Source: Candidatus Omnitrophota bacterium
Lineage (GTDB): Bacteria; Omnitrophota; Gorgyraeia; Tantalellales; Tantalellaceae
Assembly (NCBI GenBank): GCA_023142805.1
Contig: JAGLIU010000017.1
Coordinates: 1-43,653, forward strand
Direction of reading: 5' to 3'
Length of the DNA: 43,653 nt
Shown here: one piece after another, positions 15,657-30,097 of the stretch
Layout of the letters: each line of letters opens with the position of its first letter
How positions within the stretch are numbered: position 1 is the stretch's first letter
Position numbers and translations under genes: made by a program
The notes under the pieces: model-generated
The model's input: the letters and a program-made list of their open reading frames with translations, nothing else
What the model was told of the DNA's origin: nothing
Databases searched by the model: none

Positions 15657-16220
15657 TTAATCTACGATGTAGGTTATTGTTTGCCGAAAAAAAACTTTTG
15701 CCCTAATAGCAGAACCTCCCACCCCAAAATTAAACGCGCTTAATTCGCCACTGCTATCTGTTATTCTCGCCTGCCAAGTATCAGCCGCCCCGGTTTGTAT
15801 CCACAAAACACCCATCCTCTCCTCGGCCGTTCCAGCGTCTTGTTTTGACAGTGCAACAGGCACCCCCTTCGGGAGCGTTGGCAGAATGAGTGTAGGCCAT
15901 GTGGTATTTGGAGTAACAACAAGCTCTGTATTAGTGGCATGGTACCCCCGGAGTTCTTCTGTCGTGATGTGGACAACATTTCCTATTTTGGTATATGTCC
16001 AATTGACATTAACAGGCGTGGTGAAATAGGTACTCGTAACATCCACATTAATAGTGCCAGTCAAGTAATCATCTACAGAATCAGTAATTGATATTTTAGG
16101 ACATGAACCATCTGCATCAAGCCCTTGGTGGTTGTGTCCATTACTCGCATTGGTTCCCCAATACAAATCCAGGAAATCTGGGGTCATGTGGTCGCCATTA
16201 GACCAGTCTCTTTTAGCCAT
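15657..16220 (-). CDS. tail fibre-associated / receptor-binding-like protein (187 aa)
   Basis: GGAG RBS. Last gene of the late operon. The NGHNHQGLDADGS motif is similar to HxH motifs of fibre tips and to TGGHRHF in the large fibre. Confidence 0.5.
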   Translation of the reverse strand: MAKRDWSNGDHMTPDFLDLYWGTNASNGHNHQGLDADGSCPKISITDSVDDYLTGTINVDVTSTYFTTPVNVNWTYTKIGNVVHITTEELRGYHATNTELVVTPNTTWPTLILPTLPKGVPVALSKQDAGTAEERMGVLWIQTGAADTWQARITDSSGELSAFNFGVGGSAIRAKVFFRQTITYIVD

Positions 16221-16229
16221 AATTATCTC

Positions 16230-16865
16230 CTATGGTACATAAGTATATTCAAATTTAGTCCATGCCGGTTTTAATCGTTCGTACATGTTCTCAAGTTCTG
16301 GGGCACTCGCTGCTCCTGTAACGGTTACGGTGATTAGATAACAACTTGACCCAAACGGGCCATTGTGTATGGGCGCAGGTAATGGTGTCCCTGGACCTTG
16401 TGGGCTTGTGTGAATTGAGTATTGATGAATAACAAAACCTATTGCACCCGTGCCTTCGGCAAGGGAGACGGTATAAATGCCGCTCCCAAGCTTATTGCCC
16501 AATGATTCATAGTACGCTTTTGTCAATCCACCACGAGCCCTAACAGCCGCTTCAATCCTATTCCTTCTAATGGTATCCGAGTCGCCAGGAGCCACAAGGA
16601 GATTGTATGTTTCCTCAAATGACTCCATTAACAAAGTGGTGGTGTCAGGAAACAAATCATCCAGCAACAGCGCTCCTTGGTCTTCGCAGTAATCAAGAAA
16701 CTTTCCCATTACATGAAAATTATTTACAAAGATCGGATCTTCTTTCAGAATTTGAAGCGGTGATTGTTTCCGCATAGCGACTTCGTGCCGAAACGGATCA
16801 ACCGCACTGTCCTCATCTTTGTAATATGATTCACCGTATGAATAATTGGTGCCATAATCACCCAT
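16230..16865 (-). CDS. DUF2313 (Mu gp48 / YmfQ-like) baseplate-tail fibre junction protein
   Basis: LFPDTTTLLMESFEETYNL..DSDTIRRNRIEAAVRARGGLTKAYYESLGNKLG follows the DUF2313 pattern (T..L..WE...gl......RR..v.a.....g.t..y...l...lG). Confidence 0.7.
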   Translation of the reverse strand: MGDYGTNYSYGESYYKDEDSAVDPFRHEVAMRKQSPLQILKEDPIFVNNFHVMGKFLDYCEDQGALLLDDLFPDTTTLLMESFEETYNLLVAPGDSDTIRRNRIEAAVRARGGLTKAYYESLGNKLGSGIYTVSLAEGTGAIGFVIHQYSIHTSPQGPGTPLPAPIHNGPFGSSCYLITVTVTGAASAPELENMYERLKPAWTKFEYTYVP

Positions 16866-17261
16866 TTATGCCTCACAAAATTTGTTTAATTTGTCATTCC
16901 AAACAACATCAATTTCAAAAGGCTTGCTAATTTGCTTCATCATAGAACCACCCGTATCTATCCAAGAATACGGACGCGAGCCCTTTGTAACCTCCCACCC
17001 CTGCACACAATACCCAAGATCTTTTTTTGTAAATTCTACAAATTCCTCTTTGTCAATGTTTTCAAGCTGCGATATACAATCCTTGCATTCAATGGAATCA
17101 TCTATCGTTTTTTGATCTCTTGCTGCGAGCCTAAATAGGATTGTCAATAATTTTATTTCGTATTCCTTTATTGACAAGGTTTCTTCGCCTTTTTCCTCAT
17201 TGTACGTTTCTTTTACAATTTCCTCTGATTTAGAGAAATAAATTTTAAAAGTTTTAGCCAT
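16866..17261 (-). CDS. hypothetical protein (131 aa), possible fibre assembly factor by position
   Basis: AAGGAG RBS. Its stop abuts the next start (TAAATG). Confidence 0.55.
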   Translation of the reverse strand: MAKTFKIYFSKSEEIVKETYNEEKGEETLSIKEYEIKLLTILFRLAARDQKTIDDSIECKDCISQLENIDKEEFVEFTKKDLGYCVQGWEVTKGSRPYSWIDTGGSMMKQISKPFEIDVVWNDKLNKFCEA

Positions 17262-17288: not shown

Positions 17289-20200
17289 TTAACCATTCAG
17301 AAGGGTGTAGCTGTAAGTTACGGTCCCACCTATTCTGTTTTTTAAATATATTTTACCATCTGTGTGAACATTTACATTAAATTGCGCGTCAGTCCCATCT
17401 CCCGCTCCATCTGTTAGAGCACCAGTCGAAGCGGTAAACACGGTTGCCGTGTCAAGCTCTTCTGTGCACGCTGCGGTTTCAGCATCATATCCAAATATCC
17501 CAAACCGCAAATTGTTACCAGCATCCTCAAAGGATACGACAATTACACCGCGAGGATTGTTTGGGGTAAAACTAAATACTACATCATCCGCAAGACTCGT
17601 TCCCTCCTTGCTTAGATACGAACAAGTATTACTCCTAACAGTTGTGCCTTGTAGACTGCTAACGAAATCAAAATAATTTGTGTTTCCATTTAGAGTAAAT
17701 TGCATATTTGAAACACTGCCACCACTCAAAGCCTGTAAGCCAATGGCTCCATTTGGTGCCTCATCACCGATTTCTTTTGCATCTGCCCAAATCCTTGCGT
17801 ACAGGGTGTCACTAGAGGAAGAGTCATCAGCATAGCAACTAATATACATTATATCATCATCATTTGCTTGCGAACCGCCTCTATTGTTTCTAAATATTAA
17901 TTCTGATGCATCAGGTCCGTCTGTTTGTTGGTCAAGAACGAAATCACCGCCAACAGTTAGATAGGCCCTTACGCTAGTTCCGCCTGGCGCAAACTGTATA
18001 GGAGCGTCTGATTTTGTTGACACAATCAACAATGCCGCTGCGGTGTTACCAGAATATAGCGCTACTTTATCAGCCCACCATGCAGAACTATGTGTTGAAC
18101 TAACAGCATACAGCCCACCAAAACAAGAGTCAGAAGCACATTCAAACCCTGAAAGCGCAGCGGTTCCACCTGTCAAGTTTTGTGCCCTTATTAATGTGGA
18201 GGCATTTTGGTTCTCTCCAACATCAATGAGATTTGAGCCTATTGACATACCCACACTAAGCTGGTTGTATATTGTCATGTCGCCTTGGTATGTGTTGATT
18301 CCGGTAAGTGCCTTAATTTCTGTTTTGCCAGATGTCATTATACCACTTCCGCCCTGATACCTCGAAGTCGCTACGAATATTCCGTTGCCGTAACAGACGG
18401 AATACCATCCCAGGTCAGCCGCCGAGGTCCTTGATGTCCAGATCTTACCATCCGGCGAAGTCATGACTCTGTTACCCGTACCAGTATTTGAAACCGCCAC
18501 GAATATTCCGTTGCCATAAGTCACAGAAAACCAATCCAGGTCAGCCGCTGAGGTCCTTGATGTCCAGGTCTCACCATCCGGCGAAGTCATGACTCTGTTA
18601 CCCGTACCAGAAATTGAAACCGCCACGAATATTCCGTTGCCATAAGTCACAGAATTCCAGTCCAGGTCAGCCGCCGAGGTCCTTGATGTCCAGGTCTCAC
18701 CATCCGGCGAAGTCATGACTCTGTTACCCGTACCAGTATTTGAAACCGCCACGAATATTCCGTTGCCATAAGTCACAGAAAACCAATCCAGGTCAGCCGC
18801 TGAGGTCCTTGATGTCCAGATCTTACCATCCGGCGAAGTCATGACTCTGTTACCCGTACCAGTACTTGAAACCGCAACAAAAAGCCCATTGCCGTAAGTT
18901 ACAGATCTCCAACTTAGGTCAGCCGCTGAGGTCCTTGATGTCCAGATCTTACCATCCGGCGAAGTCATGACTCTGTTACCCGTACCAGTATTTGAAACCG
19001 CCACGAATATTCCGTTGCCGTAACAGACGGAATACCATCCCAGGTCAGCCGCTGAGGTCCTTGATGTCCAGGTCTTACCATCCGGCGAAGTCATGACTCT
19101 GTTACCCGTACCAGATTTTGAAACCGCAACAAAAAGCCCATTGCCGTAAGTCACAGAAAACCAATCCAGGTCAATGGCGGAAGTCTCACTTTCCCATTTC
19201 GTGCCTGCGGAAATAATGTCGCCAATAACTTCTAGTGTATTCGCCATTACATTAACTGTTTTTGTTGCACCAACAGTAATGCTCATTGTGTCAATGCTAT
19301 GATCGTACAACAGCATTGCAACGTCCGCATCCTCTGGATCAGACCAAGCCACACCAGTTGTTGCGGTATTAGGGTTTAGGAAGTTTATATAATTATCGTT
19401 TGCGTCATCTTCAAGTAAAAATTGAGCTGTTGATATTTTTGTAGCTCCAGAACTTGCAACAAAAGAATGAAATCTGACTTGTGGACTATCGGTCCCAACA
19501 CCAACATTGCCACCATTAAAATAAGTGTCTCCAGCAGAATTTAATTTTATCTTTGTAGTGGCACTCGAATTAGATATTGTAACATAACCGTTGTTTAAGG
19601 CGTCTGCTTTTAGCCCTATCACGCCAGCACTACCAGACGAAACACAATTTAAAAATTCTTTTGTGCTTGAGGCGCCCGTTGTTGCATCAAGACGTATCAA
19701 CGCCCTTCCTATAGTTATTGGGTCTCCAGATATGTGCACCAATGTAAGCGGAGATTCCACCCCAACACCAACATTGCCACCATTAAAATACGAATTTCCA
19801 TTGGAGTGCAAAACCGTAGTAATATCGTTGCTTGCGTCACGCAGTTGAATATTGCCATGGTTAGAAGCGTCAGCCGCTAATCTAATGCTACTCGTGGCAA
19901 TAGATGATGTGCACAACAAAAATGCTTTGTCGCCAACGGCAGACGTAAGGAAGATGTTTGCTGCTTGTTGCGCCCCATAAACCGTCAATGGTGATCCCGG
20001 ATAATTCGAAGAACCAATTGACACATTGTCAGGAAGATATATAACGCCTTTGTTGGCATGGGACGTGCTTTCTATTGTTATGTCATCACCGTCATCTGCC
20101 CCCCCATACAAAACCTGTCCGCCAGATCTGCCAGCAAGCAAGGCGTATATTGAATGATCATCATCAGCCAGACCAACAAGATCGCCATGTTCGGCAGCCG

Positions 20201-20498
20201 CAAGCCCATCATCAACATATTTTTTGTTTGCGACCTGGTAATCAGCGGTAGGCGCAGCGGATGGAGTAAGAGGAAAGTTTACAAACGTGCCTACAGCCGA
20301 ACTATTGACATTAAGCGCAATCGTTCCAGATGTCTCGCTATATAGTTTGAAATGCCTATGCCCACCAGTGTATTTGGTTTCATCCACACAATCCTCTACC
20401 AATGTGTCTATTATATCCTTAAAAAGTTGTTCCTCAGTAACTCCCCATGGTGGCGGATCACCGGCCGTATTATGTGTAAAATTTTTATATGTTGCCAT
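17289..20498 (-). CDS. large tail fibre / receptor-binding protein containing a seven-repeat Asp-box-like beta-propeller
   Basis: 1069 aa. Two GGNVGVG(V/T)(E/D)SP motifs common in fibre shafts. Seven 42-aa repeats of the form W.S..SA.DL.W.SV.YGNG.FVAVS..GTGNRVMTSPDG... Confidence 0.85.
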   Translation of the reverse strand: MATYKNFTHNTAGDPPPWGVTEEQLFKDIIDTLVEDCVDETKYTGGHRHFKLYSETSGTIALNVNSSAVGTFVNFPLTPSAAPTADYQVANKKYVDDGLAAAEHGDLVGLADDDHSIYALLAGRSGGQVLYGGADDGDDITIESTSHANKGVIYLPDNVSIGSSNYPGSPLTVYGAQQAANIFLTSAVGDKAFLLCTSSIATSSIRLAADASNHGNIQLRDASNDITTVLHSNGNSYFNGGNVGVGVESPLTLVHISGDPITIGRALIRLDATTGASSTKEFLNCVSSGSAGVIGLKADALNNGYVTISNSSATTKIKLNSAGDTYFNGGNVGVGTDSPQVRFHSFVASSGATKISTAQFLLEDDANDNYINFLNPNTATTGVAWSDPEDADVAMLLYDHSIDTMSITVGATKTVNVMANTLEVIGDIISAGTKWESETSAIDLDWFSVTYGNGLFVAVSKSGTGNRVMTSPDGKTWTSRTSAADLGWYSVCYGNGIFVAVSNTGTGNRVMTSPDGKIWTSRTSAADLSWRSVTYGNGLFVAVSSTGTGNRVMTSPDGKIWTSRTSAADLDWFSVTYGNGIFVAVSNTGTGNRVMTSPDGETWTSRTSAADLDWNSVTYGNGIFVAVSISGTGNRVMTSPDGETWTSRTSAADLDWFSVTYGNGIFVAVSNTGTGNRVMTSPDGKIWTSRTSAADLGWYSVCYGNGIFVATSRYQGGSGIMTSGKTEIKALTGINTYQGDMTIYNQLSVGMSIGSNLIDVGENQNASTLIRAQNLTGGTAALSGFECASDSCFGGLYAVSSTHSSAWWADKVALYSGNTAAALLIVSTKSDAPIQFAPGGTSVRAYLTVGGDFVLDQQTDGPDASELIFRNNRGGSQANDDDIMYISCYADDSSSSDTLYARIWADAKEIGDEAPNGAIGLQALSGGSVSNMQFTLNGNTNYFDFVSSLQGTTVRSNTCSYLSKEGTSLADDVVFSFTPNNPRGVIVVSFEDAGNNLRFGIFGYDAETAACTEELDTATVFTASTGALTDGAGDGTDAQFNVNVHTDGKIYLKNRIGGTVTYSYTLLNG
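18315..19196 (-). repeat. 7 x 126-nt in-frame tandem repeat array inside the fibre gene
   Basis: CCATCCGGCGAAGTCATGACTCTGTTACCCGTACCAG recurs every 126 nt (about 18448, 18574, 18700, 18826, 18952, 19078). Two units share about 118 identical nt by eye. Confidence 0.9.
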
Positions 20499-20507
20499 AA
20501 CTACCCC

Positions 20508-20924
20508 TTATGATATAACAATATTATCGTTTACTTTAATGATCATTTCTATTCCGGCTTGCGCTGTTGTTGCGTCGTCAGCCGAATTAACTTTTATCAA
20601 CACGCCATAGTATTGCCCGTCACCTATCCCATTTATTGAGGACGGATCAAAGGCATACACCACCGCGACATGTCCACTTGTCAATCTCTTAGAGGATAGG
20701 CTGATTACTGTTGCACTTGACACGTCAACCCCAGTCGTTTGCCAACTGTTGTTAGATGAACTTGGAGGATTCACCAGATATACTTCAGAAGTTAAACTTA
20801 TTATTTCCTCCAACACATCTATATCGAGCTTGATTTCTCCATGTGCTGTTGAATCCTGATTAAGCCTTATCACTGGTAATATGTGTTGGGGATAATCAAA
20901 ATCAAAAACTGCATTCCTATTCAT
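20508..20924 (-). CDS. hypothetical structural protein
   Basis: The internal ATG 20924 has AAGGGG 9 nt upstream. The ORF-track start 20951 has no RBS. Confidence 0.55.
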   Translation of the reverse strand: MNRNAVFDFDYPQHILPVIRLNQDSTAHGEIKLDIDVLEEIISLTSEVYLVNPPSSSNNSWQTTGVDVSSATVISLSSKRLTSGHVAVVYAFDPSSINGIGDGQYYGVLIKVNSADDATTAQAGIEMIIKVNDNIVIS

Positions 20925-20956
20925 TGTACACAACCCCTTTCCTATTATCATTACAA

Positions 20957-21229
20957 CTATAGCTCTCTATGACCAGATAAAACCGCCACACTTGGCTGTA
21001 TAGGTTTGTGCCACAAAAAAAACGCTTCCTCATCAACTAGCCCCTCATTGGTGACGACAAATAGATGTGATTTGATTTGTGCGGTGTCTCCAGATTTATG
21101 TATTGTCTTAACTTTGTATACCACAGTATCACTTCCTGCAAATTCATCTATGTCAACCTTTGGATCTTCGATAGCATAATAAGCAGAGTTTAATTCACTT
21201 ATTATATCCGTCTTTTTTTTCTTAATCAT
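20957..21229 (-). CDS. hypothetical structural protein (90 aa)
   Basis: AGGAGG lies 5 nt before ATG 21229. The ORF-track TTG start is at 21232. Confidence 0.55.
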   Translation of the reverse strand: MIKKKKTDIISELNSAYYAIEDPKVDIDEFAGSDTVVYKVKTIHKSGDTAQIKSHLFVVTNEGLVDEEAFFLWHKPIQPSVAVLSGHREL

Positions 21230-21250
21230 CAAATCCTCCTAAAGTTAATA

Positions 21251-22297
21251 TTATGCCTCTGTAACATTTATTGTTCCTGGTCTAATATGCTCATCATTGT
21301 CAACTGTAGTTTCTTCCGCCGCTGGCACTGAAACCACCGCAGTTGCTGCACCATATGACAATGCCGTACACGTCAGTATTGACTTGTGCAATGTTTGCCC
21401 AGGCTTGTATGTATCCAGCAAATTTTCAATAGCATCTTCTATTGCCGTTGTATCAACACTACCACCCACGGGTGCCGTCACTTCAATTGTCACAGCCTGT
21501 GTAGCTGGGTCTGATGAGGAAACAGTTACTGAAATCATACCAAGCGGCCTTACTGTTTCAATATATGTTTCGGTGGCCCTTCTAAGCAATTCCTCAGCTC
21601 CTGCAACACTATATCCCTCTGGTGTACCTGTAAAAATATCATCATTCAAAACCAGTGTATTTAAATCCTCTACTGATGCAACTGTGGTAATGGAGTCGTC
21701 TGTGGTGTTGGTTACGGGATCACCCGCTGCTACTGCGGCCGTAACAAAATCAGCCCCAGAATCGACTAGTTTGTTGACAACCACACTGGTATTGTTCCCA
21801 CTTGCTTTCACCTGATTTATTATGGTTTCGTCATCAGGAATTGTATACACACCTACAGTGCCAAGTAGATCGTTTGGTGTGCTTACAACAGTTGCGTACT
21901 CATTGGTGTATGTGGTGCCGCCATACGTAACATATGAGTTATCTGAATCTTTAGCCCAATTTTCAAAATCAAGGGCATTCCCACCCGCTGGAGGTTGCCT
22001 TAATTTATTTAAAACCTTTATCAAATAAGTCGCGTCAGTATCAGTTCCGGTATAAGTCACCTCAAGAATTGCGCCCCACCTCTTAAGATTGGTTGAATCC
22101 GCAGTGTCTGGAAAGTGCTGTTTGTGTATCCACCCCTGGTATTTGTATAGTCCCCATAGCATGGAAGATAATGTAGAGCCATTTACAAAAGCCATAGACC
22201 CAATTGACACGTCGGGAGAGTCGTCAAGGTTGTCATAGTCTGTCAACACATCATTTAATATTGTGTCAAAATCTTTTTCATATGGTGAAGTCGTCAC
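21251..22297 (-). CDS. baseplate J-like protein (Mu gp47 / P2 gpJ equivalent)
   Basis: Size, position after the gp46-like gene, and an N-terminal F..IL.D.L......D.S.GS....... pattern typical of Baseplate_J. GTG start with GGGGGA RBS. Confidence 0.75.
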   Translation of the reverse strand: MTTSPYEKDFDTILNDVLTDYDNLDDSPDVSIGSMAFVNGSTLSSMLWGLYKYQGWIHKQHFPDTADSTNLKRWGAILEVTYTGTDTDATYLIKVLNKLRQPPAGGNALDFENWAKDSDNSYVTYGGTTYTNEYATVVSTPNDLLGTVGVYTIPDDETIINQVKASGNNTSVVVNKLVDSGADFVTAAVAAGDPVTNTTDDSITTVASVEDLNTLVLNDDIFTGTPEGYSVAGAEELLRRATETYIETVRPLGMISVTVSSSDPATQAVTIEVTAPVGGSVDTTAIEDAIENLLDTYKPGQTLHKSILTCTALSYGAATAVVSVPAAEETTVDNDEHIRPGTINVTEA

Positions 22298-28651: not shown

Positions 28652-30097
28652 TTATAGTATTAAGTCAATTCTATTTGCTAATACGTGCAAACCATTAACT
28701 ACATCAGTTGGTATTTTTGTGTTTACCCTATTCGCATCCACTGAATCGCGTTCGCATATAACCCCATCCTTATTGGCCTGGACATTTTCCACAATCTCAA
28801 ACTCCTCTAGTTGATTCAATGTATATAGAACCTGAGTTTTTACTCTGTCAGGAGTTTTGGTTGAAAGTTTAGCTCTCTGAAAAACAGACCTTTGTCTTGC
28901 CTCAACAGCAAGCTTCACATATGCTAATGTTCTCATGGTAGTGGTGTCAAGCAATGCGGGGTCATCAAAACCAGACGCGTCAGTAGTGTATGTTGTTATA
29001 GATCTAACAATAGCAACCTCTTCCCCCGGGACCACGTGTAGTGGAGTCACGCCATTAGACAAGCAAGACTCTTGCTGTGTTCTGGTTAGCCGGTTGTCCA
29101 AATGAGCAGGTGCAATACCAGTTAAAACCAAATCATTTAATGGCCGTGCAGGATCTTCCTCTCCTGCCATAACAGCGGCATAAGCTGCGCCTATTTCATA
29201 TTCCAGAGAATGCCCGTTTTCGGTGGTCTTAGTATATTTGAGGTAAGCCGTGCTCATCCATTCCTCATTCATGGTTGTGCCTGCTAATGTCTCAAGTGTG
29301 GCCTGGACTCCATTATATCCAAACACCCCAATTGCTGGCTTGCCCTCAGTTGGTGCGACTCGTGAACCAAGATGGGTTTTAAGTAATCCCAAATTTGTTG
29401 CGTCGCTCAGTGTGCTTACTATGAACTGATAGTCTGAGGTAAGCAAAGAAGCAAAAGCATTTGTAAAATCAGGATCTGTTGCGCCTGCTGTGGGCTGTAC
29501 CACTACAATTGTTGTGGTACCAATATTATTGTTTTTGTATGCAACCGCAATATTATTTCCTGCAAGCCCATCATTACGAGCCGTAAGTGTTACCACGTTT
29601 GAAACCACGCCGGAGGTTACTTGAGTCAAGTGCTCCTTTGCCTGGATAGCTGTATCTATCGATGCTGCAATTACGGTATTAATATCCCCGCTTGTCACAG
29701 TCACTTGAATTAGCACATTCCCAATCCAGATATCGTAATATCCGGTCGTGCTCGCTGTGCCAGTCACTGTTATTGTGCCAGCGGCTTGAGAGCCGGAACC
29801 ATCGTCAACGGGCACGAGATAAAGCTCAATATTTGGGTTTGCATCTAATGCGGCCTTACAAGCAAGGTGCGCAATAGAACCCTGTCCACCAGCAGTAATC
29901 GCTTCGTCGGTTGACAATATTTTGAGTGGTTTATCCGCCACTGCTTCACCTGCGCTTGTCATCTGTGCGACAATAGCTATTTTTGGCGCATTAACCGGCA
30001 GAGATTTTATAGCGAGCGAAGTATTAAATTCCGAATACCTGCCTGGCTTGCGTAAGCTGGTTGGAATGTTGTCAAAAATTATATTAGGACTTGCCAT
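28652..30097 (-). CDS. contractile tail sheath protein
   Basis: 481 aa. The N-terminal ..IPTSLRKPGRYSEFNTSLA matches the conserved sheath N-terminus (R.PG.Y.E.d.s). GAGGAG RBS. Confidence 0.85.
   Translation of the reverse strand: MASPNIIFDNIPTSLRKPGRYSEFNTSLAIKSLPVNAPKIAIVAQMTSAGEAVADKPLKILSTDEAITAGGQGSIAHLACKAALDANPNIELYLVPVDDGSGSQAAGTITVTGTASTTGYYDIWIGNVLIQVTVTSGDINTVIAASIDTAIQAKEHLTQVTSGVVSNVVTLTARNDGLAGNNIAVAYKNNNIGTTTIVVVQPTAGATDPDFTNAFASLLTSDYQFIVSTLSDATNLGLLKTHLGSRVAPTEGKPAIGVFGYNGVQATLETLAGTTMNEEWMSTAYLKYTKTTENGHSLEYEIGAAYAAVMAGEEDPARPLNDLVLTGIAPAHLDNRLTRTQQESCLSNGVTPLHVVPGEEVAIVRSITTYTTDASGFDDPALLDTTTMRTLAYVKLAVEARQRSVFQRAKLSTKTPDRVKTQVLYTLNQLEEFEIVENVQANKDGVICERDSVDANRVNTKIPTDVVNGLHVLANRIDLIL

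Follow-up and report, generated by a model that had tools for sequence, protein, structure and literature searches.

A homogenised array of seven 42-residue repeats, predicted to fold as a beta-propeller, in a putative myovirus tail fibre

The stretch of DNA analysed here, referred to as the window, comprises 43,653 nucleotides (nt) of contig JAGLIU010000017.1 from an assembly filed under a Candidatus Omnitrophota bacterium. It is a segment of a myovirus genome that encodes a tail sheath, a tape measure, two hub proteins and gpW-, gpJ- and gpI-like baseplate proteins, as well as the major head protein, a protease, the portal, the large terminase, a primase and a helicase. In the baseplate module, between the gpJ-like gene (21251-22297) and the gpI-like gene (16230-16865) and with small open reading frames (ORFs) on both sides, lies an intact ORF of 1069 amino acids (aa) at 17289-20498 on the minus strand, and within it runs the array of near-identical repeats that is the subject of this work. 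The location of the ORF in the baseplate and tail module and an N-terminus common to other fibre genes (motifs at aa 69-97 and aa 158-417 match 92 fibre-like genes in IMG/VR) identify it as a probable phage tail fibre gene.

A seven-unit array and its predicted fold

The array consists of seven head-to-tail units of 42 aa (126 nt each) at 18315-19196 on the minus strand, which correspond to aa 435-728 of the ORF. Phasing the translation on its first Trp reproduced exactly the coordinates given in a preliminary description of the locus, which had been made from the sequence alone. Tandem Repeats Finder reported a single array in the region (18369-19173, period 126, 6.4 copies, 89% matches, 0 indels, score 1246). 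The reading frame is unbroken across the 882 nt, every unit carries its own set of substitutions, and the array is far beyond chance. The unit motif W(T/E)S(R/E)TSA.DL.W.SV.YGNG.FVAVS..GTGNRVMTSPDG.. had been ascribed to all seven units; it holds in units 1 to 6, and in unit 7 it is kept over the first ~24 residues, after which the sequence diverges (FVATSRYQGGSGIMTSGKTEI) and PDGxxW is missing.

The units are not equally alike. Unit 1 (19071-19196, aa 435-476, minus strand like all the others), which begins WESETSAIDLDWFSV, shares 98 of 126 nt with unit 2 and 101-104 with units 3 to 6, and 32-35 of 42 aa with units 2 to 6, while pairs among units 2 to 6 have 107-124 nt and 35-40 aa in common; the range over units 1 to 6 is thus 32-40 of 42 aa. 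Unit 7 (18315-18440, aa 687-728) shares 68-91 nt and 22-30 aa with the other units, the values being low because its second half has diverged. The earlier statement that units share more than 100 nt applies to all pairs among units 2 to 6 and to unit 1 when paired with units 3 to 6, but not to units 1 and 2 or to any pair that involves unit 7. Likewise, units 4 (18693-18818, aa 561-602) and 6 (18441-18566, aa 645-686) had been called identical in protein sequence, which is correct for their first 40 residues, whereas the last two differ (ET versus KI), so that the two units agree at 40 of 42 aa and 124 of 126 nt. The longest exact repeat within the array, 121 nt, starts inside unit 6 at 18447 and recurs in unit 4 at 18699, an offset of 252 nt or two units. 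Unit 2 (18945-19070, aa 477-518) and unit 7 do share GWYSVCYGNGIFVA, and the pairing is backed by a GGATGGTATTCCGTCTGT DNA tract that is present in these two units and in no other. Unit 3 (18819-18944, aa 519-560) has a AATGGGCTTTTTGTT tract in common with unit 1, unit 5 occupies 18567-18692 (aa 603-644), and a block of 39 nt (nt 82-120 of the unit) is the same in units 1 to 6.

For structure prediction, the propeller was aligned with 21 homologous arrays (39-68% identical to it) that were picked from 139 single seven-unit arrays with 39-75% identity to the present propeller. With this 22-sequence alignment, AlphaFold2 returned a model with a predicted local distance difference test score (pLDDT) of 92, a predicted template modelling score (pTM) of 0.89 and 28 strands in a strictly regular seven-by-four pattern; even in the diverged unit 7 four strands are placed, the last at GIMTS. 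The alignment was needed, as a single-sequence run on aa 397-780 gave a pLDDT of 41 and was useless. Foldseek comparison with the PDB placed the seven-bladed Ycf48 first (5ojr and 2xbg; template modelling [TM] score 0.66-0.72, E values down to 3.5e-13, 16-18% identity), followed by six-bladed Kelch and designed propellers at a TM score of ~0.55, and comparison with BFVD found the same domain in many viral proteins (TM score 0.85-0.93). Independently of any structure predictor, a hidden Markov model (HMM) of the blade, run on the 120 best homologues, counted arrays of 7 units 147 times, of 14 units 22 times and of 21 units once, with few other counts, and seven is therefore the structural unit. 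The proposal of the preliminary description that a seven-bladed propeller is present in the tail fibre agrees with all of this, and aa 435-728 are predicted to form one closed propeller with four strands per blade. The ends of the chain would lie in the same or in adjacent blades; the mode of ring closure and the face on which the variable residues lie are features that we infer.

A beta-trefoil was considered as an alternative fold and rejected. A phmmer search of PDB sequences gave only the designed Symfoil proteins (E ~5e-6), which match because they have the 42-residue period and the PDG turn in common with the array, whereas seven is not a multiple of three, the homologous arrays come in 7, 14 and 21, and the confident model matches propellers only.

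Affiliation and spread of the propeller family

The repeat had been likened to the BNR/Asp-box. The units read S-P-D-G-(K/E)-(T/I)-W and have one residue fewer between D and G than the Asp-box S-x-D-x-G-x-T-W, exactly as had been stated, and the turn S-x-D-G-x-(T)-W between two strands, in a fold of the propeller class, does recall it. The likeness does not extend to the profiles: BNR, BNR_2, PSII_BNR and Sortilin-Vps10 gave no match at E <= 1 in the whole protein, and no BNR-type profile is found among the families listed (25 of 30) for the 22 aligned propellers at E <= 0.01. The proposed HMM check against BNR-, sialidase- and Sortilin-type propellers thus came out negative for both the protein and its aligned homologues, with Pfam giving EPTP and DUF6242 instead. 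Classical sialidases are six-bladed and their catalytic site is asymmetric; nothing of this sort is visible in the present propeller. Judged from these comparisons, the Asp-box label describes a resemblance only.

The two Pfam assignments are themselves weak. EPTP (PF03736) reaches 47.9 bits with the whole protein and 60 bits with the domain (cut-off 21), none of the repeats passes by itself, and the alignment covers only positions 12-32 of the 42 in the profile; the same behavior is seen in 19 of the 22 homologues, and LGI1-type structures lie outside the top 50 fold matches. DUF6242 (PF19755) scores 29.9-35 bits (cut-off 29) through positions 149-217 of 217, the last third of the profile. 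This family corresponds to BamH, a six-bladed, scaffold-like subunit of unknown role in the BAM complex of Bacteroidetes. Scanning the fibre against NCBIfam gave noise only, and against PHROGs two weak families of unknown function.

Ycf48/HCF136 (2xbg, 5ojr), the best solved match, resembles the present propeller in having seven blades of four strands in ~300 residues, and some of the phage homologues carry the annotation 'ycf48-like' or 'photosystem II assembly factor'. However, with the low identity given above, a profile E value of 0.016 and no PSII_BNR match, the fold alone is held in common. Ycf48 is also a free-standing lumenal lipoprotein that binds a D1 peptide, while the present propeller is an insert in a virion fibre of the baseplate module. 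Some annotators label Ycf48 as BNR-type. Nothing relevant on Ycf48 or EPTP in phage fibres was found in the literature.

By sequence, the propeller is best regarded as a further member of a large, known and uncharacterised family that public phage records already contain, in most cases under the name 'hypothetical protein'. It conforms to the family in blade length, in the arrays of seven and in its hypervariable positions, and the BFVD models of viral members superimpose closely on it, whereas the rest of the fibre (the N-terminal 434 aa and the C-terminal 341 aa) has no close relative. With a word-indexed search, 1207 matches were obtained, and the top 120 of them were 42-76% identical over the propeller in their best local alignments. 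Most of these were large surface-type proteins (several carry names from Bacteroidota) that combine the propeller with domains such as a PF18962 secretion-sorting tail, FN3 and CHU_C, and phage fibres with an S74 chaperone domain were also present. An exhaustive profile search of 1.84 billion cluster representatives (50% identity) retrieved 53,699 proteins when the limit was E <= 0.001 and 18,667 when it was E <= 1e-30, including members with many propellers in one chain. The matches P0157 to P0240 include giant proteins of up to 7363 aa, in which as many as 21 stretches of a single chain (P0157, 7024 aa) were matched separately by the propeller profile. The family consensus reads W-T-S-R-T-S-A-A-D-N-x-W-x-S-V-T-Y-G-N-G-L-F-V-A-V-x-x-x-G-T-G-N-R-V-M-T-S-P-D-G-I-T.

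The cassette has spread widely among phage fibres and bacterial surface proteins. Cultured phages that carry it include Synechococcus phages B3 and B23 (46%) and Stenotrophomonas phages CM1 and RAS14 (44%), and other phage records have it annotated as 'ycf48-like', 'BNR repeat domain protein' or 'baseplate wedge initiator'. Of the genomic contexts retrieved, one is a siphovirus in which the tape measure protein, Dit and Tal are followed by a 14-blade protein, another is a podovirus whose PTL_trimer fibre has three propellers, and the third is a bacterial chromosome. The module had been called unusual for a myovirus fibre, a view that does not stand, as the same propeller is found with all three tail types, in phages both cultured and uncultured, and the family counts tens of thousands of clusters. 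In BFVD, a Caudovirales fibre with an S74 chaperone domain matched at a TM score of 0.93 and 56% identity, and a collagen triple-helix repeat protein of Hokovirus HKV1 (A0A1V0SF56_2) has a propeller that is 58% identical to the phage copy (TM score 0.90). The Hokovirus propeller is as close as the best Caudovirales fibre match (P0118 / A0A6J7WX40), and the cassette therefore crosses very different virus groups. A 2026 catalogue of contractile injection system fibres already lists beta-propeller lectins on collagen-like shafts (PMC12923769), an arrangement that is similar in placing the module on a phage-tail-type fibre and, in the case of the Hokovirus protein, in combining the present propeller with collagen repeats.

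Homogenised blades in a fibre with few relatives

The blades are alike well beyond what their protein sequence requires. At fourfold-degenerate sites under conserved residues, units 2 to 6 are 88.9% identical, compared to 27% expected from composition. Over all 21 unit pairs the fourfold-site identity is 0.74, and the three other family loci differ from the present array in that their blades are less alike at synonymous sites (0.56 at the siphovirus, 0.35 at the podovirus and 0.39 at the bacterial locus). In addition, mosaic tracts are common to units 1 and 3, to units 2 and 7, and to units 4, 5 and 6. Because protein-level selection alone would not yield such identity and such tracts, it is most likely that recent duplication, together with gene conversion or unequal recombination, has homogenised the array, in line with what the preliminary description had suggested. 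Its further proposal, that the array is a hotspot for recombination and thereby for variation in host range, is plausible. The positions at which the blades still differ include 11, 13 and 27, the most variable ones in the array, and in 941 family blades the same three positions have the highest entropy (3.5-3.7 bits).

The G+C content at third codon positions (GC3) is 0.50 in the array, compared to 0.33 in both flanks of the fibre gene (17289-18314 and 19197-20498); six further genes of the window range from 0.35 to 0.44. Such a jump hints at an imported cassette, although the signal amounts to only about two standard deviations since a homogenised array counts as one or two independent blades. 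No recent donor could be identified at the DNA level: units of the three other loci reach at best 0.61-0.71 nucleotide identity to those of the array. In a search for close relatives whose copy number could be compared, an exact 36-nt block conserved in units 1 to 6 proved absent from the IMG/VR and JGI metagenome contigs.

The preliminary description had also warned that the number of repeats could be mis-assembled, and the risk is real. Apart from the window, this phage was seen only in an independent short-read contig of 2271 bp (ENA ERZ23498528 scaffold_101218), which is identical to the window from ~21250 into unit 2, where the last part of the contig (2200-2271, corresponding to about 18990-19070 of the window) shows three mismatches and then ends in AGATCGGAAGA, which is Illumina adapter-like. 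With this break inside unit 2 and the 121-nt exact repeat, an error of two units is conceivable, and if the true copy number were to differ, a gain or loss of two units through that repeat (offset 252) would be the most plausible form. We nevertheless find an artefact improbable, given that the frame is intact over the whole array, that all seven units have unit-specific substitutions, that the family counts 7, 14 and 21, and that seven units are modelled as a closed ring with high confidence. Since one short-read assembly did break inside this array, fibre genes with such arrays are likely to be under-assembled in viromes.

On both sides the propeller is joined to the fibre by linkers that recur in other phages. 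The N-side linker EVIGDIISAGTK (19197-19232, minus strand) is conserved in phage-fibre homologues (EVVGDITSTGTKW in P0060, EVAGNTLTKGVTW in P0095), whereas in the bacterial surface proteins it is not, and the C-side linker GKTEIKALTGINTYQG (18282-18329, minus strand) has a GKTE...(Y/F)QG pattern that is likewise kept in phage-fibre homologues, the corresponding pattern on the N side being EV.GD...GTKW. GKTE...(Y/F)QG follows both listed propellers of P0060 and one of P0095, and ...NIYQG follows one propeller of P0054. In the phage homologues P0095, P0070, P0118 and P0060 similarity extends past the propeller, over aa ~400-800 of the fibre. As phage homology spans this region with its linkers while the ends of the fibre have few relatives, the propeller would seem to be a portable insert.

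The putative attachment and shaft region (aa 1-434; 19197-20498, minus strand) contains two modules that end in YFNGGNVGVG, and its sole full-length match, P0121, is a fragment of the same phage, with other matches covering only short fibre motifs. The decapeptide is identical at the ends of the two modules, ~90 residues apart (aa 237-246 and aa 326-335, encoded at 19761-19790 and 19494-19523 on the minus strand), and the propeller, too, seems to have a looser version of this boundary on its flanks. Comparing the shaft regions with themselves by BLAST gave no reportable match. The near-orphan C-terminal 341 aa (aa 729-1069; 17289-18314, minus strand) matched a single weak homologue, P0156 (E 1e-11, coverage 29%), in a search of 5.8 billion proteins and gave no hit in Pfam, PHROG or NCBIfam; they may be the distal tip.

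Around the fibre (15657-17261 and 20508-21232, minus strand), the gene order is unusual in that the fibre and three small ORFs (91, 147 and 131 aa) sit between the gpJ-like and gpI-like genes; two of the three were scanned for families and gave no match. Beyond the gpI-like gene, an ORF of 187 aa (15657-16220) has an N-terminus, NGHNHQGLDADGSCPKI, that resembles a fibre-type motif, and it may encode a second, short fibre. Two ORFs on the opposite strand that overlap the fibre gene, 18043-18357 (plus strand, 104 aa) and 19591-19848 (plus strand, 85 aa), have GTG/TTG starts and low-complexity translations and are taken to be shadow ORFs. The gpJ-like protein has no relative in IMG/VR, a megablast search with 20 kb found no DNA relative among cultured phages, and there are no tRNA genes in the window. 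A Bacteroidota host, as the closest relatives of the propeller would have it, was considered and rejected because the sheath (gene at 28652-30097) is Mu/P2-like with its best matches, at most 48% identical, in phages of Proteobacteria.

Possible roles of the propeller

Our preferred reading, to which we give a probability of roughly 0.6, is that the propeller is a multivalent, lectin-like binding module that was inserted as a cassette in the fibre and fastens the fibre to a ligand, probably a polysaccharide, that is repeated on the host surface. Four observations point in this direction: the blades are nearly identical, relatives carry propellers in tandem, the module occurs in adhesin and receptor-binding settings, and variation clusters at three loop positions. 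A self-contained cassette of linker, propeller and linker would be inserted between two shaft modules of a presumably trimeric fibre, and with the chain ends in the same or adjacent blades the propeller could project sideways from the shaft. Near-identical blades would give near-perfect sevenfold pseudo-symmetry and thereby one equivalent site per blade or blade interface. Unequal recombination or gene conversion would keep the blades uniform, with amino acid differences persisting at positions 11, 13 and 27, and the C-terminal 341 aa may supply a second, distal contact. The data above show the repeats, the fold, the rule of seven, the homogenisation and the spread of the cassette; that the propeller binds a ligand, is specific for a glycan, projects sideways from the shaft and influences the host range is what we infer.

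Propeller lectins such as tachylectin-2, AAL, RSL, PVL and the Photorhabdus PLL also have highly repetitive blades, which suggest that each blade offers an equivalent site and that binding works through avidity. The likeness is one of possible working and not of membership, as the present propeller has no sequence or top-50 structural match to them. In Staphylococcus phage phi11, a five-bladed propeller in Gp45 is reported to be the carbohydrate-recognising part of the adsorption device (PMC4901313). It differs from the present propeller in blade number, sequence family and tail type, and the likeness implies no homology.

Several observations weigh against a lectin-like role. We know of no ligand, glycan or receptor for any member of the family, the family profile reaches no solved structure significantly (best BtSGBP-B at 0.0098, followed by Ycf48), and the top 50 Foldseek matches in the PDB do not include the known propeller lectins. 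The nearest solved fold, Ycf48, binds a peptide and not a sugar, and the matching Pfam families are the protein-binding EPTP and DUF6242, with its unknown function. The high-entropy positions could be merely unconstrained loops, and the Mu/P2-like sheath is no more than 48% identical to those of phages of Proteobacteria.

Some of these points speak for a protein-binding or structural propeller, one that would dock a peptide or a virion protein (a neighboring fibre, the baseplate or an assembly factor) or would stiffen or space the fibre, comparable to Ycf48 and the EPTP repeats of LGI1. Ycf48 was solved with bound D1 peptide, the only Pfam matches are EPTP and the scaffold-like BamH family, and the propeller sits in the middle of the fibre and not at its tip, with 341 residues still to follow. 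Such a role is in our view unlikely, since the occurrence of the same cassette in a myovirus, a siphovirus, a podovirus, a giant virus and bacterial surface proteins argues against one conserved virion partner, and since many relatives have two, three or more tandem propellers, which is typical of avidity-driven adhesins. The uniformity of the blades bears in turn on whether the propeller might be an enzyme, that is, a sialidase-like glycosidase or a depolymerase that degrades a host surface polymer. Propeller glycosidases exist, and SPDGxxW resembles the Asp-box, the SPDGITW of the family consensus even more so. However, propeller enzymes assemble a single asymmetric active site out of unlike blades, whereas here the blades are near identical and no blade has unique residues. 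Among the BNR, sialidase and glycoside-hydrolase catalytic models there is none that matches the protein, its aligned homologues give only stray weak matches to an Ig-like accessory domain, and the top structural matches (Ycf48, Kelch and designed propellers) are non-enzymatic, which together make catalysis very improbable.

It can also be asked whether the ligand belongs to the host at all. The propeller could bind environmental material, such as mucus or algal or particle polysaccharide, and keep the virion near its hosts, and it fits with this that the propellers nearest in sequence (60-76% identity) belong to large surface-type proteins, several of them named from Bacteroidota, and that no host receptor is known. 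Still, the fibre is encoded in the baseplate gene block and is not a capsid decoration protein, and the propeller protein of the siphovirus occupies the receptor-binding-protein slot right after Tal, so that we hold environmental binding to be quite improbable.

A bolder extension of the lectin-like reading, which we regard as doubtful, is that the family is a major unrecognised class of multivalent glycan-binding modules exchanged among phage, giant-virus and bacterial proteins, that the present array works as a shuffler of specificity, and that the GC3 jump reflects a recent import. Conversion would then keep the scaffold uniform and move variants at the three loop positions from blade to blade, and blades could be gained or lost in steps, with only a count of seven surviving.

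In conclusion, the finding alone changes little, as propellers on phage and phage-like fibres have already been catalogued, and the local interest of this array lies in how recently its blades have been homogenised. The family as a whole is very large and without a solved structure or a known ligand, and the present copy offers a clean and nearly symmetric example for structure determination and glycan screening. If it is true that blade-to-blade conversion alters specificity, this would be a simple route to changes in host range that does not need a dedicated enzyme.

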